Source of the DNA: a virus
Length of the DNA: 37,426 nucleotides
Reading direction: 5' to 3' (one strand)
UHGV virus genome: UHGV-0281131
Of the stretch, positions 9,801 through 33,990 are shown one piece after another. The notes beneath the pieces were generated by a model. The model was not told where the DNA came from, did not search any database, and worked only from the letters and a program-made list of their open reading frames with translations. Numbering within the stretch: the first letter of the stretch is position 1; each line of letters opens with the position of its first letter. The position numbers and the translations under genes were made by a program.

Positions 9801-12364
9801 TTAGCTCCTACAAACTCAAAATCAATATTGTATTTAAATTTATAAAAATCTAGCATTTTCTGTATGCCATCAATATTATTTTTCTTTCTTACAGTTTTAC
9901 CAAATTCTTTTTGAACTGCTAACATATCATTAGTTAGTTGTTCAGCACTTGTAAATCTTTTATTCAAATTCAATTTTTCTTTAAAATATTGAATTATCTC
10001 ATTTTTTCTAGCAGCTTTAGATTTACTTTTAATCTTTGGATCTGTTGTGTCAATTTTAAGTTTATATATATCTCCTACTATTCCATAAGAAGTTGGGTCT
10101 TGAGAGAAAAGTCCATGATATTTAGTGTTGCTGATAGTAAATTCTACACTCATTATTGCTTCTTTTTCTTGCCATCTACTCCTTGTGAATACAGGGTTTC
10201 CATCCGCGTCAACACCAGTTTGGATAGGATATTTAGTTCTACTAACATATCCTTTAGCTTTTGTAACTTTTGCTTCTTTAGGAATAGCACCTTTTCCTTT
10301 TAAAACTTGTGTTATTTGGTCTTTATTGTAATCTCTCGGGTTGTGTCTTATAACAGTTTTTTTATTTTCAAACTCATCAGCAGTAGTTTCATAAATATGT
10401 AATTTTAAATCTTTTTTATCAACTTCATTTATTAAAACTGTTTTAGGCTTTTGTGGCTCCAATATTTCAGCAGGAGTTTTATTCCATAGTTCTAAGAAGT
10501 TATTAAAAGCTTTTTTCTGCTCTTTACTTAATTTTTTTTCTTGCATAATCATTTCAGCAAGTTCTTTCATAAGTTGTGGTTCTTGAGTTATTAGTTGAGA
10601 AAATTCTTCTTTTGAATTTATTCCTAATTCTTTTATTGATATAAAAGTATCCATGACTATTTTACCATCAGTTTTAGGAACAGTTTCCATTATTTCTCTA
10701 GGTTTAAATGGTCCTATTCCCAATCTTTCTCTTGCTAGTTTTCTCATTTGAAGTTTATTTAATCTTTTAGTTTCTGGAATATCTATTTCTGGGAAAACTT
10801 CTTCTATTATATTTTTAGGTTGAACAGTAGGTAAAATTTGTATAGTTTCCTCATCTAAAGGGAATACATAACCTTGATAATCTCCTTTTTCATTTTTTCT
10901 AAAATCAGCAAAGAATCTTTTACCACTATCTATGAACTCTGATTTTATAATATAATTTTTAGTTTCTTTGTCTTTATATCCTCTAGCATATATAACATCA
11001 GCTTCTTCTGGAATAATTCCAGTAATTCTAAGTTCTGATTCTAAAGCTCCTTTTTTAAAAATTTTATAATCATTTTTTATAGGTTGTCTTCTAGCTGCTA
11101 AATTTCCTAAGTCCATTCCGTTTATAGCACGTGTCTGGCTTACTCCGTATCTAGTAGTAATTACTTTTTGTATATTGCTTGGATAAAGAGTAGGTTCATA
11201 TATAACTACTGGGTCATCAAAATTTTTTATTAATTGTCTTGCTACTCCATTCATATCAAGATATATATCAGTTATTTGATTTGGGTTAGTTACATCATAG
11301 TAATATCTAAAGGCTTGTATGTCATCAGCTCCTAAAGATTTATTTCTTAACGCTCTGGATATAATAGTCCTCATTTGTTGTGGGTTGCTTTCTAGTAGTT
11401 CGTTGAAATCAAATACAGATTTTATGTTTGGATATCTAGGGTCATCAATAACATTATTGATTATACTTGCTGTGTATTCTCTTATAATCGGTAATTTAAC
11501 AGAGTTTATCTCCAAGTTATCTGGAACTATATTATATAAGCTACCAGTCTTACCGAGGCTTTCATTGAATGGCATCATATTTTGAATTGTAGCTCTTGTT
11601 ATATCTGGGTCTATCTGTCCAGTATATCCAAAGGAACTCCTTATATTCCTTATAACGTCTATTTCTGAATTTTTAATAGAATTTAATATTCTTCTACTAC
11701 CTACTCCAATTCCAGCAAAACCAACACTAGCAACACCACCAGTACCAGCCGCAAAGAAAAGTTCTTCAAGTGTAGGTAATCTATCTTCTGTGCTATAAAT
11801 ATCATAAGATTCTTGAAGTGTATTCTCTACTGCTCCAGCTCCTGCTATAACTCCAATTTTTGCTAATTTAGAAACGGGGTTAATTACATTCAATATTCCA
11901 GCACTCAACATATTAGTAGTTGCATTTACTGCAAATTGGTTAGCGTCTGTTAGAACTCTTATTCCCTCTGCTCCAAGTGTTGCTAAAGTTCTTTTGGTTA
12001 AATTTGGGTCAGAACCTAACATTCTTCTCATTCTGTCAAGACTAGCTTTAGAAACTTTTTTATAGTCTTCAACATACATTTCTAAGTCTTGCATATCTTT
12101 TTCTAATTCTTTATCTTTATAAGTTCTAGCTAATTTTTTCTCCTCTGCTAACACAACCTCATTAGCAAATCTATTAAAGTTGTTCTTTATTTGTGTTCCT
12201 AACTCTTTAAAAACTTTTCCTTGGTCTATATCATATTTACTTTTACCTTTTGTTATTTCAAATCTATCAGCTATTTCTTTATTGTCTTGATAATATTTAT
12301 TTATGTCTACTATATTAGCCTCTCCATTTTTAGCTAAATACAGTGCCTTATTCATTTCAGTCAT
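6836..12364 (-). CDS. Giant internal virion / ejection protein (1842 aa), T7 gp16-like by position; contains an HEXXH zincin motif
   Basis: Largest gene of the late operon, directly downstream of other putative core proteins. Carries a glycine-rich hydrophobic stretch (GVIAGAGAVEN...AAGTGGVASVGFAGIGVGS) and the metalloprotease-like motif VLRHEIQHILDLY with downstream Glu residues. Confidence 0.5.
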   Translation of the reverse strand: MTEMNKALYLAKNGEANIVDINKYYQDNKEIADRFEITKGKSKYDIDQGKVFKELGTQIKNNFNRFANEVVLAEEKKLARTYKDKELEKDMQDLEMYVEDYKKVSKASLDRMRRMLGSDPNLTKRTLATLGAEGIRVLTDANQFAVNATTNMLSAGILNVINPVSKLAKIGVIAGAGAVENTLQESYDIYSTEDRLPTLEELFFAAGTGGVASVGFAGIGVGSRRILNSIKNSEIDVIRNIRSSFGYTGQIDPDITRATIQNMMPFNESLGKTGSLYNIVPDNLEINSVKLPIIREYTASIINNVIDDPRYPNIKSVFDFNELLESNPQQMRTIISRALRNKSLGADDIQAFRYYYDVTNPNQITDIYLDMNGVARQLIKNFDDPVVIYEPTLYPSNIQKVITTRYGVSQTRAINGMDLGNLAARRQPIKNDYKIFKKGALESELRITGIIPEEADVIYARGYKDKETKNYIIKSEFIDSGKRFFADFRKNEKGDYQGYVFPLDEETIQILPTVQPKNIIEEVFPEIDIPETKRLNKLQMRKLARERLGIGPFKPREIMETVPKTDGKIVMDTFISIKELGINSKEEFSQLITQEPQLMKELAEMIMQEKKLSKEQKKAFNNFLELWNKTPAEILEPQKPKTVLINEVDKKDLKLHIYETTADEFENKKTVIRHNPRDYNKDQITQVLKGKGAIPKEAKVTKAKGYVSRTKYPIQTGVDADGNPVFTRSRWQEKEAIMSVEFTISNTKYHGLFSQDPTSYGIVGDIYKLKIDTTDPKIKSKSKAARKNEIIQYFKEKLNLNKRFTSAEQLTNDMLAVQKEFGKTVRKKNNIDGIQKMLDFYKFKYNIDFEFVGAKKIQHLGETIIKKNKDGSRILQVAISDKIKDLDTQIGVLRHEIQHILDLYNTPEFRSKEFNPVVMDSAKPIEEVLKGINRGHFADYSDDYFELSYIIKNAMDNLVDGDKLNPEFVEILKLDIPKVIDKDDVSAVKKIIKETGNEVDVSERLAKLKAETNKYFKIKDGLRKIYRSNENLSGKARRAKDFLKTQILLPFQKTKEQSKTKLLNLFTLDYKGQKLDLEKMLDLFEENKFDLRDFLFSFNRKLPDELAELQPKLEDIRETLYQTVKELTKDYDINVQDIYNNLNYDSNLSLEKLLSQDELQKYLTTLTKEFDGQKFLDGELIADPVTGKDVSKRLVDPRERFAERNYDFFMSSVERLEIEIKKENPSPYEIIQRLKEIKTCIPSDERFKIISKYNLEQYPEVQRFLKNNKDFFEDLPGTDFDRNNIESKKQNARRAFTEDMDSYKGAEENPLKETAVHRFGRFENWIDRGYIKKSKVKDFVANNKVDGRLALQKLINEISNAEAIKSTFPQGGYKGFKKLLGELQTSTLSQDFKSYMRELEGYIDVELGRDLGHITKPIETSLDRFVKKYTSVYGKINLTGPKAFRELYMEPMSMVRANISRYGGDGFFTTYKQVMNNVIALMMNVNNTPELMAQLKNSMPIEYVNAILGELDDFTGYRKARMIKYGSNQDKLLSALDSGLNKLNLYQYTQLALKAAAYSLGGMNLEKFAKYSSLDELLNSQGHYFKKMIEDLNIGSLEFEFMKKIPDLESFKNNKLYDEISFSDSIKKTDIENYLGDIITDDEFKYIKDDIVDKVTKFYDKMVSDISPTEATAAARNEIDMINDNVRRNFARMTGFFKTSLQEQWRRLATDVFYSNVNNGKMDWTNKLWQKRMMNYMVQLGVVVVAGSLLKDGEFYEDPLGTVIDKFNDMVDSPGSTLWTFFDDNIINSYALTTGSMAIVRPAYLIQNISKGDIDKAATNLIKMGINTTNYNIAKNVIELLQ

Positions 12365-17230: not shown

Positions 17231-17387
17231 CTATAAGTTTTTCTATGACAGATAATTGTTCAAGAGTAGTCGCTGCTTCAATCCCTACTCTTCCAACAAC
17301 TAAAAAGAAAGTTCTAGTTTTAATATATTTCTTTTTTAATAGATACCTCATTAATTTATAAAACATTAAAAATAATTTATTTCTCAT
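17193..17387 (-). CDS. Small hypothetical ORF (64 aa), uncertain
   Basis: Overlaps both neighbours (38 nt with the 172-aa gene, 11 nt with the recombinase). Could be genuine or a frame artefact. Confidence 0.2.
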   Translation of the reverse strand: MRNKLFLMFYKLMRYLLKKKYIKTRTFFLVVGRVGIEAATTLEQLSVIEKLIDGGINIEKARSD

Positions 17388-18072
17388 TTTGTGCCTCCTC
17401 TAGTATAATATTTTTCTTATACTTGTAATATGTATTCTTAGTTATTCCTAGCAGTGTAAAGACTTCTATATCTTTAAGATTTCCTCCAAAATCTTTAGCT
17501 AGTTTTTTAATTTTCTCTCTCATCTCCTTTTCTTTCTTGGTAGTATAAGTATCTCCTTGTTTTCTACCTAATACAGTTCCTTTAGCTTTAGTAACTCTTA
17601 GTCCCTCTTTTGTTCTTTCTCTAAGGTCTAACACTTCCTTTTCAGCTTGGTCAAATGCTATTTTAATTTGTTCTTGAGCTAATATCTTTAATACTTCATT
17701 GGTTGCATCTATGTATATATCAGCTATTTTATTTCCTGTTGAATCTATTTTATTCTCTAAAGCTTTTTTATAAAGGGCTGTATTGATATATCCCTCTTTT
17801 AAAAATATAAGTTCAATACCTCTTTCTACAAAATTAAAATATTCTTTTATTCCCTCTTCTGCATTTCTACTCATTCTACTAACAGAATCAAATATAATTG
17901 TATCTCCAGGTTTAACTATTTTTTTTAGCTTACTCCATTCTTTTCTATCTGTTGTAGTTCCTGTATATGCTTCTTGAAATACTTTAGCAGTTGGATATAT
18001 CTTTATGATATTTTCCACCTGTCTTAAAATATTTTGTTTTTTTGTAGATACCCTGCAATAACCATAAATCAT
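17377..18072 (-). CDS. Serine recombinase (resolvase/invertase family) with C-terminal HTH
   Basis: N-terminus MIYGYCRVSTKKQNILRQ has the catalytic Ser of small serine recombinases in the usual Y-x-R-V-S-T context. It carries the resolvase catalytic-core motifs and a C-terminal HTH (FTLLGITKNTYYKY). It has its own promoter and SD. Confidence 0.8.
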   Translation of the reverse strand: MIYGYCRVSTKKQNILRQVENIIKIYPTAKVFQEAYTGTTTDRKEWSKLKKIVKPGDTIIFDSVSRMSRNAEEGIKEYFNFVERGIELIFLKEGYINTALYKKALENKIDSTGNKIADIYIDATNEVLKILAQEQIKIAFDQAEKEVLDLRERTKEGLRVTKAKGTVLGRKQGDTYTTKKEKEMREKIKKLAKDFGGNLKDIEVFTLLGITKNTYYKYKKNIILEEAQNEK

Positions 18073-27327: not shown

Positions 27328-28403
27328 TCTAACTCTGCCCCCTCTTCTCCTAGTCTTATTTTTATACTAACTTTAGCTATTTTTTTGAGTAGTTTTTCCA
27401 ATCTTTCAAAGTTCTTGGAATAAGACTTTTTAATCTCTCCAAGTTTTTCTAACTCTTCCAGCTTTTCAATAACTTTCTTTTTCTGGTATTGAATAGCTCT
27501 TTTTTTAATACTCATATTATTTTCAGTCATTACAACATCAAGTAATCTAATATCAAATATTAAATACTCTTTCATCATAAGTCTTTCTGCTAACCCCTTA
27601 GTTCCTGGAGCAACTATCTTTTTTAATTCTGCGATGTCATAGTTTAACTCTTTGACTATCTGCTCTGTAAGTATTGCTCCTATTGTTTTTCTAAGTGATG
27701 AAGCTAGATTATCTTTAGTTATTCCACCTAAATGATTTAAGTTGTAGGTCTTGAGGTGCGGAGGTCTTAGTGTCAACTCTCCTCTTAATGCTTGTCTTTT
27801 CTTTACTCCCTCTTTTCCCGTATCTTCCATCTCTTTTCTTTTGGAATAGATTTTAAAGTAAGCCTTGCTATCTCTTGGTCTTTTACCTTTTTCTCTAAAG
27901 TCTACTCCGTCAAGTTCCAATCTTTTTTTGTTGTCTGTATCAAAATACATTCTTGAGGTTGGAAAGATATTTTTATATGCTCTGTATATCAAATTTAAAA
28001 CTTGATAATAATTTCTAATGTTCTCAACTTCTAATTGGTTTGAGAGGTCTAGACTTGTTATAACTATATCCTCTTCTCTTACAAGTTCCCCTGTTATGCT
28101 TCTAAGTATTAAGATTAATTCTTGATGTACTTGAGCAATAACTTTTTTATTTGTTACTAGCTTGTAATTGTCATTGTTATCATATCTGGAATAACTAAAA
28201 GATATTGTTATAGTTATAGAGTTTCTTTTCTCCTCTACTCCTATAAAGTTTAACCAGCTAAATTTTTTTAGCTGGATATTTTTATATAATATTCTTTTAT
28301 TTTCTGCTTGTGCCTCTTCTTTCAGTAATAGATTAGCTGACCCGATTATAAAATCAAAGTCAGTTTGTCTAACTGAATAATTTATACTTGCGGTATCTAC
28401 AAT
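27315..28403 (-). CDS. First gene of late operon: 363-codon open frame; only ATG is at 27992 (225 aa), upstream 137 codons stop-free with ATT after a strong SD
   Basis: The frame is open from TAG at 28404-28406 to 27315. AAAAGGGGGTGGG is followed 4 nt later by ATT at 28401-28403. No ATG/GTG/TTG occurs until 27992. The C-terminal half is Lys/Glu-rich and helical. Confidence 0.4.
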   Translation of the reverse strand: MVDTASINYSVRQTDFDFIIGSANLLLKEEAQAENKRILYKNIQLKKFSWLNFIGVEEKRNSITITISFSYSRYDNNDNYKLVTNKKVIAQVHQELILILRSITGELVREEDIVITSLDLSNQLEVENIRNYYQVLNLIYRAYKNIFPTSRMYFDTDNKKRLELDGVDFREKGKRPRDSKAYFKIYSKRKEMEDTGKEGVKKRQALRGELTLRPPHLKTYNLNHLGGITKDNLASSLRKTIGAILTEQIVKELNYDIAELKKIVAPGTKGLAERLMMKEYLIFDIRLLDVVMTENNMSIKKRAIQYQKKKVIEKLEELEKLGEIKKSYSKNFERLEKLLKKIAKVSIKIRLGEEGAELEWQE

Positions 28404-28606
28404 CTAACCCACCCCCTTTTAATTTTCTAAAAGATAGCTTTAAGTTTTAAAACTATCTCTAAGAAAATCAGGTATATTTTATTTTTTTATATGCTGCTCT
28501 CTCTAATATAAACGGGAGCATTATATATAATTTTATGTCAAAAAATTTTTTTAAAAACATAGAATTTATGCTAGTTTCAGAAGATTTTTTCTTACTTTTA
28601 TACCCT

Positions 28607-28634
28607 CAAAAACGCAATTTTTTTTGCGTTTTTG
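28607..28634. terminator. Perfect 11-bp A/T-symmetric hairpin CAAAAACGCAA-T6-TTGCGTTTTTG (bidirectional terminator/insulator)
   Basis: Seen directly. Lies between the late operon start and the convergent gene pair at 28716-29062. Confidence 0.5.
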
Positions 28635-28651
28635 GGGTAAAAAAATATTTA

Positions 28652-28680
28652 TTAACATACTTTCAAAATTGTTATATAAT
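28652..28680 (+). promoter_or_regulatory. Promoter TTAACA-17-TATAAT for the 28716 ORF
   Basis: Spacing is exactly 17 bp. SD AAAGGAG precedes the ATG at 28716. Confidence 0.4.
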
Positions 28681-28715
28681 TTGATTAGCACACATCAAAG
28701 AAAGGAGTTGAAAGT

Positions 28716-28910
28716 ATGTTTGAAGATATTTTCAAAGGTTCAATAGTTGATGTCTATATCAACAACCCAGAAAAACCAACTTTTGAAGGCTATAAATTTA
28801 TAAGACAAATAAATGCTTTTATTTGCCTTGAAAATCCCAGCAATTTTAATTTTATCTATGTAAATCTAAATAATGTTTTAGCTATTCAAAAGTCAGTAAC
28901 TCAAGAGTAA
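28716..28910 (+). CDS. Hypothetical protein (64 aa)
   Basis: ORF with SD AAAGGAG and its own promoter. Convergent with the minus-strand regulator pair. Confidence 0.4.
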   Translation: MFEDIFKGSIVDVYINNPEKPTFEGYKFIRQINAFICLENPSNFNFIYVNLNNVLAIQKSVTQE

Positions 28911-28918
28911 ATGGCAGT

Positions 28919-29062
28919 TTATTCTGCCTTTTCTCTTTTTAGTAATAAAGTATTAAAATAATCAAGTATCATTCTTTCTTGTAGTTCTTTTCTCAAGTCC
29001 ATTTTGTCTAGCTCTTCTTTAAAATACTTCAATGTCTCAACAAGTTCTTTTGTTTCTTCCAT
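28919..29062 (-). CDS. Small acidic helical protein (47 aa): MEETKELVETLKYFKEELDKMDLRKELQERMILDYFNTLLLKREKAE
   Basis: Not in the track (<60 aa). Strong SD AAGGAGGTGCAGGA immediately before ATG at 29060-29062. Directly downstream of the HTH gene, 36 nt apart on the same strand. Confidence 0.35.
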   Translation of the reverse strand: MEETKELVETLKYFKEELDKMDLRKELQERMILDYFNTLLLKREKAE

Positions 29063-29098
29063 TCCTGCACCTCCTTTCGTTTTCCTGGTGTTAAAATG

Positions 29099-29335
29099 TT
29101 ATTTAACTAAATCAGCAACTGAAACATCAAGGGCATTCGCTAGTTCAAATAAAGTTGATGTTGTTATCCCGTCGCCTTTTTCTAATTTTTTTAGTCTATT
29201 ATGCACATTCTGGGGAGTAGTCCCAGTTTTTCTAGCTAATTCACTAGAATTTATTTTTTTTACTTCCATTTCTTTTAAAATATTTTTATAAATTATTAAA
29301 TTAAAATATTTAATTCCGTTCATTATATACCCCAT
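29099..29335 (-). CDS. XRE-family HTH transcriptional regulator (Cro/CI-type); likely true start at internal Met (29269)
   Basis: INSSELARKTGTTPQNVHNRLKKLEKGDGITTSTLFELANALDVSVADL is a classic HTH_3 domain. The N-terminal 22 residues of the track ORF are AT-rich filler. Confidence 0.6.
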   Translation of the reverse strand: MGYIMNGIKYFNLIIYKNILKEMEVKKINSSELARKTGTTPQNVHNRLKKLEKGDGITTSTLFELANALDVSVADLVK

Positions 29336-29483
29336 TTTTATTTTTTTATATATATTTTTAAACCATTTTAATTATATTAATAACTCAAAAATTTAATAAA
29401 GTCAATATTTATTTTTTATATAAAAATAAAAAAGTTATAAAAACATTCTATTTTTCTAGCTTTTCAAAAGATAAAAAATATAT

Positions 29484-29519
29484 AAAAAAGAGGAGAAAAA
29501 AATTCTCCTCTTGTTTATT
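29484..29519. terminator. Bidirectional rho-independent terminator GAGGAGAA-AAAAA-TTCTCCTC with flanking A and T runs
   Basis: Seen directly. Terminates the repressor-membrane protein operon (minus) before the next HTH gene. Confidence 0.55.
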
Positions 29520-29549
29520 CTTGTGATAATTATTTTATTTCTTTATTTT

Positions 29550-30266
29550 TTAAATAATTTCTAATTTTAAAATCATTGTTTCTTCTTTAGGGTCTAATAT
29601 TACACAAATTGTTAATTTATAAGTTTTTAAATAATCATATTTTTCTAATTTGGTTATATCAGTTATGATATACTCTTCTCTTAAAGTTTCATCTTTCACA
29701 TACATTCCTGTTTTTTTGATAGTAAAATCTTTGAATTCTTTTTCTAATTCTATATTCAATCCTGCAAATAATGAAGTATAATAAAATTGTGCCAAACCTT
29801 TATTGTTTATATTTTTATGATTAAATTCTGGCGTTTTATATCTTGCAACTTTAAAATAAATGATATTTTTTTTATCATAAAAATTATTAATCATATTTTC
29901 TATTTTAGGACTTTTATTTTTCAAAAAAGAATCCAAAAAAAAGTTAAATTTTTCTTTTTCTTCATCAAATAAATTTTCGAAAATAACTTCATCTACTGCT
30001 TGCTCCTCTCTACATTCTGGAACAGACAAAGGTTTCATTGATATATCTTCAGGCATTTTTATTTCATAGTCATATACTCCTTTTGTATAATTATCGTTCT
30101 TCTCTTTTTCTTTTTGTTCTCTTTTTTCTTTTTCCCATTTTCTTATTTTACTTTCTTGTATTTGGTCATGAATAAACGACCATACAAAAGCTATCACTAA
30201 AATAAAAATAGCTCCAACAATCGTTTCTCCTACTAAATAAATCAAATCATTTAAACTTCTTATCAT
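29550..30266 (-). CDS. Membrane-anchored protein co-transcribed with the CI-like repressor (candidate superinfection exclusion / abortive infection protein)
   Basis: 238 aa. N-terminal TM helix (LVGETIVGAIFILVIAFVWSFI), Lys/Glu-rich linker, ~150-aa globular C-terminal domain. Starts 24 nt downstream of the repressor stop and is followed by a terminator. Confidence 0.5.
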   Translation of the reverse strand: MIRSLNDLIYLVGETIVGAIFILVIAFVWSFIHDQIQESKIRKWEKEKREQKEKEKNDNYTKGVYDYEIKMPEDISMKPLSVPECREEQAVDEVIFENLFDEEKEKFNFFLDSFLKNKSPKIENMINNFYDKKNIIYFKVARYKTPEFNHKNINNKGLAQFYYTSLFAGLNIELEKEFKDFTIKKTGMYVKDETLREEYIITDITKLEKYDYLKTYKLTICVILDPKEETMILKLEII

Positions 30267-30289
30267 ATCCCCGCCTTTATATATAACCG

Positions 30290-30607
30290 TTATTGTTTTA
30301 AAAATTTAATAGCATCTAACATATGATTTAATTTTTTATTCTCTTCTTTTAATCTTTTTACCTCTTCTATCATTTCTGGGCTCATTCTGTCGAAGTTCCA
30401 AGCTTCCCATGCTTCGTTAGTTTCTTTCTCATCCAATTTTAAAAACTCTATTATTTTTTGCCAAGTTTCATATTTAGCAGTCTTTTTCCCATTTCTCATA
30501 TAACTTAAATATACTTGGCTTATTCCTGCATACTCTGCCATATCTTTTAAATTTACATTTTTAGCAACTGAATATTTTTTTAAAAAAATCTCTGTATTAG
30601 TCATCAT
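30290..30607 (-). CDS. CI-like prophage repressor (XRE-family HTH)
   Basis: HTH LKDMAEYAGISQVYLSYMRNGKK near the N-terminus. Transcribed divergently from the early operon. Confidence 0.65.
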   Translation of the reverse strand: MMTNTEIFLKKYSVAKNVNLKDMAEYAGISQVYLSYMRNGKKTAKYETWQKIIEFLKLDEKETNEAWEAWNFDRMSPEMIEEVKRLKEENKKLNHMLDAIKFLKQ

Positions 30608-30637
30608 AACACCTCGTTTTTACACTTTTTTATTTAT

Positions 30638-30672
30638 ATTATAGCACAAGCTATTAAATTTAGTAAATAACC
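30638..30672 (-). promoter_or_regulatory. Repressor (maintenance) promoter, extended -10 TGcTATAAT on minus strand
   Basis: Minus-strand reads TTTACT-N18-TGCTATAAT. The -10 lies at 30638-30643, 25 nt upstream of the repressor start. Confidence 0.4.
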
Positions 30673-30709
30673 TAGTTTTTATTTTTAAACTTTTTTATTT
30701 AAAAAACTA

Positions 30710-30738
30710 TTGACAAATTAAAAAAAATTCTATATAAT
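30710..30738 (+). promoter_or_regulatory. Early promoter with perfect consensus TTGACA-17-TATAAT
   Basis: TTGACA at 30710-30715 and TATAAT at 30733-30738. Drives the plus-strand early operon starting at 30804. Divergent from the repressor promoter. Confidence 0.6.
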
Positions 30739-30758
30739 TCAATTAAGAAATTAAACTA

Positions 30759-30783
30759 AAAGGTTTAAAATAATAAACCTTTA
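30759..30783 (+). promoter_or_regulatory. Perfect palindrome AAAGGTTTA-AAATAA-TAAACCTTT in the early 5' leader (operator or leader hairpin)
   Basis: Seen directly. 9-bp arms between the early promoter and the SD (AGGAGTTGG) of the first early gene. Confidence 0.4.
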
Positions 30784-30803
30784 AATTTATAGGAGTTGGT
30801 AAT

Positions 30804-31250
30804 ATGTATAAATACTTTAACAGTAACGAGGATTTAAAAAAACAATATAGAGAATTATGTAAGAGATTACACCCAGACCATGGTGGAAACGAAGAGAACT
30901 TCAAAGAGATGATGGCAGAGTATGAAAGAATACAACTTGAGGGATTTAAACAACAAGCAAGGGAAGCAGGGGAAGAGATAGCCCCAGAGGTTATGGAGAT
31001 ACTAAAGAAAATAATACATTTCCATGGTTTAGAGATTGATGTTGTAGGCTCTTGGATATGGGTATCTGGTAATACTTTCTTATACAAGGAACAGTTAAAA
31101 GAACTTGGTTTTAGATGGAGTGCTAAAAGAAAAAAATGGTACTTTGGAGAGAAAAAAGGAAAAGGAACATTCAAGGGAGATTATGAAGAGTTAAAACAAA
31201 AATATGGTTGGCAAAGAGTACAAGGAAGCAACCTACAAGCGATAGCATAA
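30804..31250 (+). CDS. J-domain (DnaJ-like) protein, first early gene
   Basis: N-terminus DLKKQYRELCKRLHPDHGGNEENFKEMMAEYERI is a J domain with the invariant HPD tripeptide. A ~80-aa C-terminal domain of unknown function follows. Confidence 0.7.
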   Translation: MYKYFNSNEDLKKQYRELCKRLHPDHGGNEENFKEMMAEYERIQLEGFKQQAREAGEEIAPEVMEILKKIIHFHGLEIDVVGSWIWVSGNTFLYKEQLKELGFRWSAKRKKWYFGEKKGKGTFKGDYEELKQKYGWQRVQGSNLQAIA

Positions 31251-31253
31251 TTA

Positions 31254-31312
31254 AGTTTTTATAGGTTCCCCAAGGAACTTGGGGGACTTGTTAAAAACTT
31301 AAAGGGGGGTGG
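31254..31312 (+). repeat. Intergenic structured repeat copy 1 (hairpin GTTCCCCAAG-GAA-CTTGGGGGAC + ACTTGTTAAAAACTTAAAGGGGGGTGG)
   Basis: One of three ~60-bp near-identical units (31254, 32085, 32801). Each ends in the SD of the next gene. Confidence 0.6.
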
Positions 31313-31316
31313 CAAT

Positions 31317-31496
31317 ATGTCACAAGATGTGATGTTCTTAAAATATATCAATGAGAAATGGGGAGTTCTTACAGTAAGAAGATTTAAAAAATTTTATATA
31401 GTAAATGCTGGAGAGTTTCATGGATATGGTTTAACAGTATCTGAAGCAATAGCAAATTTAGCACTTAATAGTCAAGAGGAGGGAAAACTATGTTAG
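31317..31496 (+). CDS. Small protein (59 aa), possible HicB/UPF0150-like fold
   Basis: Not in the track. ATG follows the repeat-borne SD GGGGGGTGG. Sequence ...NAGEFHGYGLTVSEAIANLAL... resembles the small alpha/beta HicB-like domain. Weak call. Confidence 0.3.
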   Translation: MSQDVMFLKYINEKWGVLTVRRFKKFYIVNAGEFHGYGLTVSEAIANLALNSQEEGKLC

Positions 31497-31765
31497 ATAA
31501 AGAATTATTAGAAGGATTTGAAACAATGCAACAATTACAAGATGATGGACTAATTGATTCTTACAATTATAACTCAAAGACAGGAGATTTTATGGTATTT
31601 TCTGGACTTGGTAAAAAGGAAGTTAAGTTCCAGGTGGATATGGATAGTATGATGGAGTTTTTAGAAGAATGGGAAAAAGAAGTTGAAGAAGCTTTCCAAG
31701 ATAAAAAAAGAGAAGAGCAAGACAGAGAAGCAGCTTACTGGGCAGTCCAAGGGGTTAGATATTAA
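31490..31765 (+). CDS. Hypothetical acidic protein (91 aa)
   Basis: ORF overlapping the previous stop. SD GAGGAGGG upstream. Confidence 0.4.
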   Translation: MLDKELLEGFETMQQLQDDGLIDSYNYNSKTGDFMVFSGLGKKEVKFQVDMDSMMEFLEEWEKEVEEAFQDKKREEQDREAAYWAVQGVRY

Positions 31766-31832
31766 TGATAGCTTGGATAAAACATATATTAAAATTCAAA
31801 ATTAAATATAGCAAAATGTAGGGGGAATTAGA

Positions 31833-32081
31833 ATGTTAGCAGTAATGATGGAGAATTTAAAAGAAAAATACAGTATTAAAAATTTAGCTTGGGAGATAAA
31901 AAACAATATAGTTTTCTTTAGTGGAGAACTTAAAAAAAATATAGTTGCTGGATATGTAGGAAAAAAACCAGTAAGTTATGAAAAAAAATTAGATTTTAAT
32001 AGCTTTAGGGTAGCAGATGAAAATGTGGGAAAAGAAATTGATGACTTTTTCCAAATGCTTGAAAATGTTTTTAATAAATAA
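31833..32081 (+). CDS. Hypothetical protein (82 aa)
   Basis: ORF with SD GTAGGGGGAATTAG upstream. Confidence 0.4.
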   Translation: MLAVMMENLKEKYSIKNLAWEIKNNIVFFSGELKKNIVAGYVGKKPVSYEKKLDFNSFRVADENVGKEIDDFFQMLENVFNK

Positions 32082-32084
32082 TTT

Positions 32085-32143
32085 AGTTTTTATAGGTTCC
32101 CCAAGAGCCTTAGGGTACTTATTAAAAACTTAAAAGGGGGCGG
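32085..32143 (+). repeat. Intergenic structured repeat copy 2
   Basis: TTTTTATAGGTTCCCCAAGAGCCTTAGGGTACTTATTAAAAACTTAAAAGGGGGCGG. Same architecture as copy 1. Confidence 0.6.
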
Positions 32144-32148
32144 TCAAT

Positions 32149-32286
32149 ATGACTGATGTTGGATTAGGAAGACTTGATAATTACTTTGATGAGGAGCTAG
32201 AAGAAGTTAGAGAAGCTGCAGCAGATATGACAGAAAAAGAGCTTAGAGAATTTTTAGAACTTTTAAATATCGAGGAGTGGTTTTAA
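32149..32286 (+). CDS. Small acidic protein (45 aa): MTDVGLGRLDNYFDEELEEVREAAADMTEKELREFLELLNIEEWF
   Basis: Not in the track. ATG follows the repeat SD. Stop overlaps the next ATG (TAATG). Confidence 0.3.
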   Translation: MTDVGLGRLDNYFDEELEEVREAAADMTEKELREFLELLNIEEWF

Positions 32287-32798
32287 TGGCAAATATAATG
32301 AATTTATTAGAGGACAAATTAGTATTAAATGAACTTTGGGAAAATTCCATTGATGAGAATACAGGAGAGATAAAAGAGTGTGAAGCTTTAGAGGCTTTAA
32401 CAAAAGAAATAGAGCAAGATTTGAACAGCAAAACAGGTAGAATTATACAGGTATTTCAAAATAATAAAGCACAAATAGAAGTGCTGGACAAGGAAATAAA
32501 AAGGCTTGAAGCTAGAAAAAAATCTTTAGAGAATAAAGATAAAAATTTTAAAAACTTCTTGAAATATACTCTTGAAAGAATAGGAGTAAAAAAAATAGAT
32601 ACTATCTTTGGAATAATAGGAATAAAAAATAATCCTGCAAGTGTAGAGCTTATAGACAAAGACAAAATACCTGCAGAATTTAAGACAATAAAATATGTTG
32701 AAGATATTTCAAAAACTGAAATTTCAAAAGCTTTAAAGGCTGGGGTAGAAGTTCCAGGAGCAGAACTTAAACAAAGTACAAGTTTATATATTAAATGA
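32286..32798 (+). CDS. Gp157-like protein (siphovirus Gp157 family; recombination-module partner)
   Basis: 170 aa from ATG 32286 (the track started at an upstream GTG). Coiled-coil (EIKRLEARKKSLENKDKN) then NPASVELIDKDKIPAEFK...ALKAGVEVPGAEL, as remembered for Gp157-family proteins that pair with Sak/RecT. Confidence 0.4.
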   Translation: MANIMNLLEDKLVLNELWENSIDENTGEIKECEALEALTKEIEQDLNSKTGRIIQVFQNNKAQIEVLDKEIKRLEARKKSLENKDKNFKNFLKYTLERIGVKKIDTIFGIIGIKNNPASVELIDKDKIPAEFKTIKYVEDISKTEISKALKAGVEVPGAELKQSTSLYIK

Positions 32799-32800
32799 TT

Positions 32801-32860
32801 TAGTTTTTATAGGTTCCCCAGGAGTCTTGGGGTACTTATTAAAAATTAAATTGGAGGTGG
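32801..32860 (+). repeat. Intergenic structured repeat copy 3
   Basis: TTTTTATAGGTTCCCCAGGAGTCTTGGGGTACTTATTAAAAATTAAATTGGAGGTGG. Same architecture as copies 1 and 2. Confidence 0.6.
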
Positions 32861-32865
32861 TCTTT

Positions 32866-33489
32866 ATGACTAAAGAAAAATTTCAAGAAATGTATTTAAA
32901 AGATTTAACAGGTATGATAGAAACAGTAGACACAGGAAAAAGAAAGCTATCATATATTAGCTGGGCTAATGCTTACAAAATGGCTATGGAGCAAGACCCA
33001 TCAATGAGTTATGAAATATTAGAAGATTTAGAGGGGTTTCCTTTATTCTCAAGAGGGGATTGCCACTTTGTAAAAACTACTGTTACTATGTTTGGAGTAA
33101 CTAAAAAAATGATGTTACCTATCATGGACAATAGACATAATTCTATAAGCAAACCTAACAGTAGAGATATAAACGACAGTATAATGAGATGTCTTGTAAA
33201 AAATATAGCAATGTTTGGTATAGGACTATCATTATACACTGGAGAGGATTTGGAAAAGTATAAGGAATCCAAAGAAGATAAAGAGGTTAAGGAAGTTGAA
33301 GAGCAAATTACACCAGAAGAGAGGGCTAAATTTATAGAAGTTATAAATAAAAAATACTCTAAAGAGGATATAGACAAGGCTATATACTTAGTTAAGGAAA
33401 ATGGTAGATTTGAATTTAATATCTACACAGCAAGTAAAAAAGAATTGAACTATTTAAAAGCAACTTTAAGAAGTTTAAAAACTGCATAA
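32866..33489 (+). CDS. Single-strand annealing protein, Rad52/Sak-like
   Basis: 207 aa from ATG 32866 (the track ORF began at a TTG inside the repeat). LSYISWANAYKMAMEQDP and the NIAMFGIGLSLYTGEDL segment resemble conserved blocks of phage Rad52-like SSAPs (FGIGRYLY-type motif). Lys/Glu-rich C-terminal tail. Confidence 0.45.
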   Translation: MTKEKFQEMYLKDLTGMIETVDTGKRKLSYISWANAYKMAMEQDPSMSYEILEDLEGFPLFSRGDCHFVKTTVTMFGVTKKMMLPIMDNRHNSISKPNSRDINDSIMRCLVKNIAMFGIGLSLYTGEDLEKYKESKEDKEVKEVEEQITPEERAKFIEVINKKYSKEDIDKAIYLVKENGRFEFNIYTASKKELNYLKATLRSLKTA

Positions 33490-33498
33490 AATAAAAAT

Positions 33499-33529
33499 GG
33501 CAGGTTTATTCCTGCCACTTTTATTAAAG
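33499..33529 (+). terminator. Rho-independent terminator GGCAGG-TTTATT-CCTGCC + ACTTTTATT after the early operon
   Basis: Seen directly, 10 nt after the stop at 33489. Confidence 0.5.
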
Positions 33530-33647
33530 AATCTTGAATAACATACGATGTTAAAAAAAGCATCTTATATGGGGTTAAAAATTTGGATACAGTAGTATAA
33601 TATACTTTTTGATATAAGTCAATATATTTTTAAACAAAAAGTATAAA

Positions 33648-33955
33648 GGTACAAAATCCAATTTTTATAGGTACAACATCAAAATTAATGTACCTTTAAA
33701 AACTACAAAATCCAAATTATAACTACATGTCCTTTTATTATTGTAGTTAATTATTTCCTATTTAGAAGAATATCTTTATATTCTTGTTTCTTTTAATATA
33801 TTTCGGCACCTCTCAAACCTTTAATTTTAGAGGGCTAGAGAAGACAAAAAACGACAAAATCCAGAGTATTTAACTACAAAATCCAAAGCAAAAAACGACA
33901 AAATCCAGAGTATTTAACTACAAAATCCAAAATATAGAACTACAAAATCCAAAAT
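33648..33955. repeat. Iteron-type replication origin: ~7 copies of ACAAAATCCA(A/G) core including two 44-bp tandem units
   Basis: AACTACAAAATCCAAA at 33701, 33872, 33916 and 33937. GACAAAATCCAGAG at 33853 and 33897. A 44-bp direct repeat spans 33844-33887 and 33888-33931. Lies immediately upstream of the Rep gene. Confidence 0.7.
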
Positions 33956-33990
33956 TGAACGACATTATTTATTGACTATGTAGTTTTAAT

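Follow-up and report, generated by a model that had tools for sequence, protein, structure and literature searches.

A structured intergenic repeat and cassette linker in the early operon of a phage-plasmid-like virus genome

Introduction

Three copies of a short structured repeat (hereafter the unit) lie between gene blocks in the early operon of the virus genome UHGV-0281131. The question raised by this locus is what such a unit does there, and why it stands exactly between a stop codon and the Shine-Dalgarno sequence (SD) of the next gene. The stretch analysed here (the window) is the whole genome of 37,426 nt, and coordinates refer to this full stretch unless a contig is named. It is a low-GC (~30%) phage genome whose minus strand carries the structural genes and whose plus strand carries the early operon. 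A first-pass annotation had read the units either as mRNA processing or stability elements or as binding sites for a regulator, and had linked them to the leader of the late operon. We show that the unit is a discrete element, that selection maintains it as a helix of two turns in the sense RNA and that, in phages, it exactly fills the intercistronic gap, leaving the SD free. It belongs to a wider family for which we found no description, a structured intergenic repeat and cassette linker whose reach extends beyond the three window copies.

Each unit is one long helix in the sense transcript

The exact 19-mer AGTTTTTATAGGTTCCCCA begins at 31254, 32085 and 32802 on the plus strand (the third copy had first been placed at 32801). 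None is expected by chance and none was found in 100 shuffles; moreover, a repeat search of the window groups the three units as one family. Alignment bore out the layout initially described, namely a 5' block, a GC-rich hairpin, an ACTT(G/A)TTAAAAA block, a G-rich SD and an ATG. However, the GC-rich hairpin, first counted as 10 bp, has 7 bp and lies inside a longer helix to which the flanking blocks also contribute. Since these blocks, AGUUUUUAUAGGUU and ACUU(G/A)UUAAAAACU, are mutually complementary, each window unit is a single helix of 22-24 bp with one bulged U on its 3' arm (Table 1).

Unit 1 (helix at about 31251-31302, loop GAA) lies between a DnaJ-like gene (stop codon 31248-31250) and orf59. 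Unit 2 separates orf82 (stop codon 32079-32081) from orf45 and is a weakened copy, in which CUUAGGG replaces CUUGGGG in the upper stem. Unit 3 is located between a Gp157/Gam-like gene (stop codon 32796-32798) and sak. The fold of the sense RNA has a z-score below -4 in two of these three units. In every minimum-energy fold of the window units the SD is unpaired, which rules out sequestration of the SD or a riboswitch-like alternative fold. The units are not simple duplications of one gene start either, an origin that the first-pass annotation had considered.

The transcript that carries the three units is a polycistronic early mRNA. It runs from the promoter at 30710-30738, the only perfect sigma-70 site found by the promoter scan, to an intrinsic terminator at 33498-33517. 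The order is DnaJ-like gene, unit 1, orf59-orf91-orf82, unit 2, orf45 and the Gp157/Mu-Gam-like gene, unit 3 and Sak, a single-strand-annealing protein whose Pfam SSAP_Sak match begins at residue 7 of the reading from the ATG at 32866. No sigma-70 promoter site was detected inside any of the three unit intervals of Table 1, and no U-tract follows the helix, the tail of the phage unit being UAAA(A)GGGGG.

Stable intergenic hairpins in the early operon of a temperate phage could be transcription attenuators or terminators that a phage antiterminator reads through, all the more so as the stem-loops of T4-type phages do terminate transcription (PMC2839356). The terminator scan marginally flagged unit 3, and only that unit, but the tail that it scored, UACUUAUU, is really the 3' arm of the long helix. 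The real terminator after sak has a U-tract that the units lack, divergent units have AU-rich stems, and no antiterminator homologue was detected among the window open reading frames (ORFs) scanned. Attenuation is therefore improbable. The earlier proposal of an antiterminator or late-activator site finds no support either, given the missing U-tract and promoter and a similarity to the late leader that is at chance level (see below).

A wider family with a conserved RNA structure

The unit recurs in related genomes. Exact-pattern scans of IMG/VR recovered it in 13 viral contigs, and the covariance model R1 found extra copies that the exact patterns had missed; the IMG/VR relatives of the window are 37.0-37.8 kb long. 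A metagenome scan, whose pattern fixed part of the lower stem, added together with R1 at least 62 units, 54 of them distinct, among the matches listed. The distinct phage and metagenome units were combined in a set of 74, the metagenome part of which consists of these matches. Since both collection scans specified the lower stem, its conservation is partly an artefact of ascertainment.

Family members are 52-58 nt long. Their lower stem is AU/GU-rich and conserved and has one bulged U, the upper stem is variable yet paired, and the loop has 3-8 nt. In subtypes whose upper stems are unrelated, the lower stem, UUUUUAUAGGU...ACUURUUAA, hardly changes, and neither does the bulged U. Some phage units have wholly different upper stems that still pair, for instance CUAUGAUU/AAUCAUAG, UUCCAAUU/AAUUGGAG and CUGCGAUUAA/UUAAUCGUGG. 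The bulk of the metagenome units form a second subtype, UAAUUUUUUAUAGGUAGCCUAAG-loop-CUUAGGCUACUUGUUAARRRAUUAAA, also labelled the AGCCTAAG subtype.

Among 21 distinct phage units, 98.0% of the pair cells hold standard pairs and seven pairs are changed on both sides. The observed covariation score was reached by none of 500 shuffles, and slid registers pair only 34-63%. The 54 distinct metagenome units give 99.1% paired cells and eight double-change pairs, in an alignment that is model-fitted and leans to the modelled structure; U.A and U.G alternate freely in them at four lower-stem positions. Single changes across the family are mostly wobble-compatible (U-A to U-G). The helix has 22-25 bp in 68 of the 74 distinct units, most of which contain 3-5 G.U pairs. 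Furthermore, the sense RNA is more stable than the antisense RNA in all but two of the 74 (means -23.5 versus -13.9 kcal/mol). When the units are folded as DNA, the two strands differ far less and the helix opens at its centre. Hence, an uninterrupted helix of two turns belongs to the sense transcript.

The variability of the apical part also bears on hairpin promoters. N4 early promoters consist of a small stem with a 3-nt loop. The three window copies stand at the starts of early cassettes with an apical 7-bp stem and a 3-nt loop (GAA in unit 1), and an ORF of 1842 amino acids has no PHROG match, so that N4-like promoters for a phage-encoded or virion RNA polymerase come to mind. However, the apical stems of divergent units are AU-rich and their loops have 4-8 nt, and the chromosomal copies follow genes instead of preceding them. 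In addition, the operon already has a perfect sigma-70 promoter, and there is no sign of an RNA polymerase. We consider such a function extremely improbable.

Database searches gave no known counterpart. Rfam covariance models had no relevant match at E<=1 in window positions 27900-34100 or in L114, a chromosomal-looking contig described below, the only hits being spurious matches of microRNA-precursor models to palindromes. Comparison by blastn of the early region and of one unit with annotated phages and plasmids returned no match, and the chromosomal subtype gave only short chance-level matches to plasmids. An exact-pattern scan of 185,579 species-representative genomes found one match, in Flagellimonas, which is chance-like. 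Neither Rfam nor the annotated phage and plasmid records nor the literature searched gave us a description of the unit; in that literature, the sequence of a 131-bp intergenic repeat of F. nucleatum (PMC1924603) is given only in a figure and is thus not comparable.

The unit is anchored to the upstream stop codon

The first-pass annotation tied the unit to the SD that follows it. This part stands for the phages: a downstream SD was found for 29 of the 30 phage-type units, starting 1-6 nt after the unit, with the ATG 13-19 nt after it. However, the link that does not vary across the family is the one to the stop codon upstream. The gap between stop codon and unit is 1 nt in 20 of the 30 phage-type units, 0 in eight, 2 nt in one and 7 nt in one; where it is 0, the first TAA of the unit is itself the stop codon. 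Among at least 62 chromosomal copies in the matches listed, about 45 of 62 begin about 1-8 nt after a stop codon on the same strand (the chromosomal tally gave 2-9, on a measure that runs one higher than that used for phage units). In the chromosomal subtype, the distance to the next gene is variable, from 0 to 260 nt. The tight distance to the stop codon and the variable distance to the next gene indicate that the invariant anchor is the 3' end of the upstream gene and not the downstream SD.

This anchoring distinguishes the unit from the start-associated sequence (SAS) and extended SAS (ESAS) of Cluster K mycobacteriophages (PMC3203893), the function of which is still unverified (PMC12699233). 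Like the unit, these are imperfect inverted repeats with a short variable spacer, located directly upstream of an SD motif and a start codon; they precede a subset of non-structural genes in one orientation and have been suggested to play a role in expression. However, the SAS, a 13-bp sequence at the start codon, reads GGGATAGGAGCCC and is preceded by imperfect inverted repeats of 17 bp; the sequence of the unit is different, as are the host phylum and the GC content. In addition, the ESAS is defined relative to the start codon, and neither a covariation analysis nor a link to recombination is reported for it, unlike for the unit.

Cassettes are exchanged at the units

In pairwise comparisons with related contigs, homology breaks off at the edges of units (31303, 31317 and 32138). 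According to a map of the genes between units, the first gene is either the DnaJ-like gene (family F3) or an unrelated gene (F8), and the recombination module is either [F4 F5]-unit-[Sak] or [F10 F7 F11] (F7-type); all four combinations of first gene and module occur. The contig L006 is devoid of an entire [F0 F1 F2] cassette, and extra genes (F9, F17, F19) are inserted beside units elsewhere. At joins between genes without a unit, the genes overlap or are fused. Moreover, the two paralogous units are identical to each other in both L005 and L007, whereas they differ from the units at the same position in other contigs at 1-7 of 47 nt. This indicates conversion between units; their flanking genes are ~97% identical in L007 and ~81% in L005. 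Comparison thus shows the 50-80 bp of conserved DNA to be the site at which homologous recombination exchanges, inserts and deletes cassettes. The exchange would be catalysed by the phage's own annealing proteins, of Sak or RecT type. The pattern itself is observed; the recombination role that it suggests may be either selected for or a by-product.

The known elements that the unit works most like are the promoter early stem-loops (PeSLs) of T4-type phages (PMC2839356, PMC4122927), although it fails their defining promoter test. In both cases, a conserved composite motif spans from the stop codon to the SD and ATG, a stem-loop contains G.U/G.T pairs, and the flanked genes are small early-region genes of unknown function. 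Copy-to-copy recombination inserts, deletes and replaces the genes flanked by PeSLs; for the units, the evidence for this is comparative. However, a PeSL is a strong sigma-70 early promoter plus a terminator stem-loop of ~100 bp, whereas the unit has ~52 nt, no promoter and no U-tract and consists almost entirely of one helix of 22-25 bp.

Could the unit be nothing more than a linker at the DNA level, providing portable homology or a structured recombinase site of the PeSL or attC-like kind, with an incidental RNA hairpin? The breakpoints at units, the presence of all cassette combinations and the concerted evolution of paralogous units within a genome would all fit, as would the position of units beside the phage's own recombination genes and the PeSL precedent (PMC2839356). 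The second subtype, too, ends each cassette on its 3' side, in a single orientation, in the orphan toxin-immunity arrays described below. Nevertheless, homology alone requires neither a palindrome nor compensatory changes nor wobble-specific substitutions, and the helix is continuous only as sense RNA, the asymmetry in DNA being much weaker and the centre opening. Furthermore, the four unrelated hairpins of the related phage L053 (next section but one) offer no homology for recombination, no tyrosine recombinase was seen in the window ORFs scanned, which gave only a serine invertase of the tail region, and inspection showed no R''/R' box consensus of the attC type. A purely DNA-level role is unlikely.

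Copies in toxin arrays of chromosomal-looking contigs

Arrays of the second subtype were found on low-GC contigs of 225-230 kb, inside loci that resemble two-partner secretion and contact-dependent inhibition systems (Table 1). In L068, an exoprotein of more than 2231 amino acids is followed by a lipoprotein gene and then by orphan C-terminal toxin fragments, each of which has its own lipoprotein of ~160 amino acids. The exoprotein is probably FhaB/CdiA-like, judging from its size, its repeats and the TpsB context of L114, which encodes a ShlB/FhaC transporter (TpsB), a MORN_2 protein and an outer-membrane protein. One unit follows each lipoprotein gene in the arrays. An upstream ORF could be recognised for 48 units among the matches listed, and in 45 of these cases it belongs to one of two lipoprotein families. 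Given where they stand in the arrays, these lipoproteins are putative immunity proteins. In an alignment that includes the flanks, the unit is nearly invariant and sharply bounded, standing between divergent gene ends on one side and at least four unrelated classes of downstream sequence on the other.

These contigs bear on the host of the window phage. Since the best matches of its Rep3 initiator are Cetobacterium and Fusobacterium plasmids, the host probably belongs to the Fusobacteriaceae; further hints come from the chromosomal-looking contigs, with their MORN_2 and TpsB context.

Such sharp edges, with flanks in several unrelated classes, the imperfect palindrome and the occurrence in both phage and chromosomal contexts could also describe a selfish miniature element of the repetitive extragenic palindromic (REP), miniature inverted-repeat transposable element or Correia type, spreading in Fusobacteriaceae and their phages without a dedicated function. 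Like the unit, REPs, the bacterial interspersed mosaic elements (BIMEs) that contain them and Correia elements (PMC2817692, PMC2649163) are imperfect palindromes that lie outside genes and are transcribed at gene 3' ends. The upstream mRNA can be stabilised by them, or they can be bound or cut by RNase III (PMC2817692, PMC2649163), Correia elements being RNase III targets as well (PMC2649163). However, REPs are GC-rich, 20-40 nt long, dispersed in hundreds of copies in both orientations and linked to REP-associated tyrosine transposases (RAYTs), features not seen in the units; the window has three copies in a single orientation relative to the genes, without the conserved 5' GTAG of REPs. Correia repeat enclosed elements have 100-155 bp, 26-bp terminal repeats and TA target duplications, which are not seen in the units either. 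No transposase or RAYT gene was found among the annotated window ORFs scanned (here as elsewhere, the scan covered part of the ORFs). In addition, the orientation of the unit and its distance to the upstream stop codon are fixed, the chromosomal copies cluster behind the two lipoprotein families instead of being dispersed, and the scan of 185,579 genomes gave only the Flagellimonas match. A selfish element is thus as improbable as an attenuator.

The arrays also recall integrons. An attC site is a structured imperfect palindrome located 3' of a promoterless cassette, with a conserved outer stem, a variable centre and an extrahelical base, and it pairs as bottom-strand DNA. Similarly, the unit stands at the 3' end of each cassette in one orientation, with a conserved outer stem, a variable centre and an extrahelical base. 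Its pairing, however, is optimal on the coding (top) strand as RNA and not on the bottom DNA strand. Inspection of the alignment for RYYYAAC/GTTRRRY boxes showed GTTAARR-like strings on the 3' arm and no complementary RYYYAAC on either strand. No integron integrase was found: the only recombinase-type match of the window is the serine invertase at 17377-18072, and the array flanks were viewed to 14 kb. The hairpin might still be the recombination signal of an integron-like cassette system without a classical integrase, common to the polymorphic-toxin arrays of Fusobacteriaceae and to phage-plasmids. Its site would then be recognised in single-stranded form or be preferred by annealing proteins of the Sak/RecT type, and promoterless cassettes, each with its linker of stop codon, hairpin and SD, would be captured, excised and reordered. 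We regard this proposal as doubtful.

The layout outlives the sequence

A related phage, L053, was retrieved solely through a DnaJ-like protein with 47% identity. Its four intercistronic hairpins (Table 1) keep the layout stop-hairpin-AAAUUAAA-SD, and each of them folds more stably as sense than as antisense RNA. R1 found no unit in phages whose DnaJ-like protein has ~30% identity (GC ~54%, loci L018-L052). A different hairpin, (AGGG/GCCG)CCGCACAGTAAAGCGA(CCCT/CGGC), is conserved as a single copy ~20 nt after the DnaJ-like gene in the high-GC (~54%) relatives L020-L052, for instance at 4520-4545 of L022. It is unrelated to the unit, shows compensatory changes from AGGG/CCCU to GCCG/CGGC and lies where the conserved DnaJ-like gene gives way to variable genes downstream. 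That the layout outlives the sequence, in L053 and in the high-GC relatives, argues for a function at the RNA level.

This function could be that of an operator, in which a sequence-specific RNA-binding protein of host or phage reads the lower stem and the bulged U and controls translation or decay. The near invariance of these parts across subtypes with unrelated upper stems points this way, the unit adjoins both the stop codon and the SD, and KhpA/B-type RNA-binding proteins are present in Fusobacteria (PMC11039985). However, the conservation of the lower stem is in part due to ascertainment, L053 uses unrelated sequences in the same layout, none of the early genes was recognised as encoding an RNA-binding protein, and the fold leaves the SD accessible. 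An operator is rather unlikely.

A proposed intercistronic processing or stability hairpin

The reading that we favour, with a chance that we put at about even, is an intercistronic RNA processing or stability hairpin whose conserved DNA doubles as a recombination linker. Of the functions named in the first-pass annotation, mRNA processing or stability is the best supported, by the covariation, the use of G.U pairs, the greater stability of the sense RNA and the RNase III-like size; cleavage itself is a prediction. The unit would act post-transcriptionally as a cassette boundary on the mRNA. Host RNase III would cut the two-turn helix, separating the cassette mRNAs as at the early sites of T7 and SP82, and the cut would free an A-rich leader ahead of the SD. 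Alternatively, the uncut helix would be a barrier to 3'-to-5' exonucleases (polynucleotide phosphorylase, RNase R) and to the 5'-to-3' activity of RNase J. Either way, a cassette inserted at any site would come with a stop codon of its own, an mRNA end that is protected and a ribosome-binding site that is exposed. The constant helix length (22-25 bp) across unrelated upper stems would be a hallmark of an RNase III substrate. That the unit is specifically such a substrate is a narrower and tentative proposal, which takes up a part of the chance given to processing or stability as a whole.

SP82 RNase III sites are conserved in both sequence and structure. Like the RNase III sites of T7 and SP82 (PMC1935012, PMC4838370), the units are several related hairpins of about two turns located between the cistrons of a polycistronic early transcript. 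As sense RNA, they form at least ~20 bp of double-stranded RNA and are bracketed by one promoter and one terminator. However, the T7 and SP82 sites have an internal loop that directs a single cut, whereas the units are nearly fully paired, the only departures being the conserved bulge of 1 nt in the 3' arm and a single variable position (U.U or U.G). In addition, those sites have no sequence similarity to the units, for which cleavage is only predicted.

Several points speak against this interpretation. In the window, the hairpin of unit 2 is weak (z -0.31), covariance-model alignments lean towards the modelled structure, and both cleavage and stabilisation stand as predictions. RNase III needs no conserved sequence, and the high conservation of the lower stem, even between distant subtypes, hints at a sequence-specific partner. 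In addition, RNase III cuts leave 5'-monophosphate ends, which are attacked by RNase J. A helix that begins 0-2 nt past the stop codon would be melted by each terminating ribosome, which could mean a translational role. Lastly, the host is a probable rather than an established one.

The late-operon leader shares the design but is not a unit copy

The first-pass annotation had related a block upstream of the late operon to the units through a shared 13-mer. Its coordinates for the G-rich SD (28408-28420, minus strand) were correct, but the 13-mer lies at 28438-28450 on the minus strand and not at 28454-28466. With at most one mismatch, five occurrences of the 13-mer were found against 1.7 expected, and 6 of 100 shuffles reach five. 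The 13-mer sits in the apical loop of a hairpin located just 5' of the SD at 28408-28416 (Table 1); the stem of this hairpin is conserved in relatives, its loop varies and the 13-mer is not conserved. The late leader was therefore rejected as a family member, since the 13-mer is at chance level and in a loop and R1 has no match there. It shares the design of a hairpin followed by an SD, yet it is not a copy of the unit.

The first late gene, the minus-strand ORF 27318-28403, is a frame of 362 codons that opens right after this SD and whose first in-frame canonical start lies 137 codons further in. Since phrog_36664 aligns from residue 44 and the ATT at 28403 is conserved in relatives, this gene probably starts at AUU (28403). 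Further upstream, TTGACA and TATAAT hexamers are separated by only ~10 nt, a spacing that may make the late promoter dependent on an activator.

Other features of the window

Besides the three units, the R1 scan of the window detected only a weak look-alike at 33656-33708 (Table 1). Like the units, it has a ATTTTTATAGGT head and a TTAAAAACT tail. It lies in the non-coding origin region between iteron-like ACAAAATCC motifs, with no gene after it, and could be either a relic of a unit or a match by chance. The divergent promoter region of the CI-like repressor (30610-30800) contains no unit-like sequence beyond a short AACCTAGTTTTTAT string, and the unit was discarded on this ground as a candidate operator of that repressor. 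The 5' leader of the first early gene carries, just before its SD, a 9-bp hairpin AAAGGUUUA...UAAACCUUU at 30759-30785, ~14 nt from the expected transcript start. This hairpin could stabilise the 5' end, but it folds no better than shuffled sequences (z -1.13).

Five 22-bp iterons (33845-33954) precede the Rep3-family initiator gene (33991-35148), which is followed by a ParA-type ATPase gene (35159-35917, read from a KGGTGKTT Walker motif) and by a gene at 35908-36573 for a 221-amino-acid protein that may be the ParA partition partner. The window ORFs scanned include no integrase; together with the iterons, Rep3 and ParA next to head, tail and terminase genes, this makes the element resemble a phage-plasmid of ~37 kb.

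Among the tail genes, the serine DNA invertase gene is on the minus strand (phrog_125, E 8e-37) and points to a tail-fibre segment that can be switched. At 3092-3981, long stretches of repeats with a 9-nt period encode collagen-like Gly-X-Y tracts in two adjacent large ORFs on the minus strand (2363-3475 and 3489-4868), which are probably tail fibres. The 1842-amino-acid ORF (6836-12364, minus strand) may encode an internal virion or ejection protein, given the podovirus-like portal. A perfect 10-bp palindrome at 29488-29512, with T-runs on both sides, scores as a terminator on both strands; it is located just downstream of a minus-strand gene for 238 amino acids (29550-30266) and upstream of a helix-turn-helix gene (29099-29335).

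Table 1. Positions of the units and of other features in the window and in related contigs (fold energies in kcal/mol)
Feature	Position	Strand	Details
Unit 1	31252..31303	+	exact 19-mer; RNA fold -28.5 (antisense -19.8), z -5.45; R1 76 bits
Unit 2	32083..32134	+	exact 19-mer; RNA fold -14.5 (antisense -15.4), z -0.31; R1 72.3 bits
Unit 3	32800..32851	+	exact 19-mer; RNA fold -24.9 (antisense -12.3), z -4.06; R1 72.5 bits
SD GGGGGGTGG and ATG (31317) of orf59	31304..31319	+	starts 1 nt after unit 1; unpaired in minimum-energy fold
SD GGGGGCGG and ATG (32149) of orf45	32136..32151	+	
SD GGAGGTGG and ATG (32866) of sak	32853..32868	+	
Early-operon promoter	30710..30738	+	TTGACA-17-TATAAT, 12/12 matches; only perfect sigma-70 site (promoter scan)
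Intrinsic terminator with U-tract, 3' of sak	33498..33517	+	terminator scan
Weak unit look-alike, ATTTTTATAGGTAC...GTACCTTTAAAAACT	33656..33708	+	R1 22.7-23.6 bits, E 0.13-0.2; fold -11.6, z -2.97
Late-leader hairpin	28421..28469	-	22-bp helix; -24.4 sense versus -12 antisense, z -4.9
Second-subtype array, contig L114	6367-13909		eight units within 7.5 kb
Second-subtype array, contig L068	7552-11722		
Intercistronic hairpins, phage L053	6466-6520, 7091-7146, 8160-8212, 9605-9660		unrelated sequences, 12-18 bp folds

Significance

PeSL-type linkers and the relaxed recombination promoted by Rad52-like annealing proteins are examples of the mechanics of mosaic genome evolution. The segmentation of early mRNA by RNase III, classically known from T7 and SP82, has, to our knowledge, not been described for Fusobacteria. 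If the reading favoured here is true, a portable linker of stop codon, two-turn hairpin and ribosome-binding site would make any cassette expressible and exchangeable wherever it is recombined. It would thus join the post-transcriptional segmentation of phage early mRNA with mosaic genome evolution, two subjects that are mostly treated separately. The unit would also be a candidate substrate for RNase III and for the control of decay in Fusobacterium, the RNA biology of which is only now being mapped, and operons designed for low-GC bacteria could use it as a compact, natural insulator part. Furthermore, the presence of the unit after immunity-like genes in toxin arrays suggests that the host and its phage-plasmids may share one cassette grammar.

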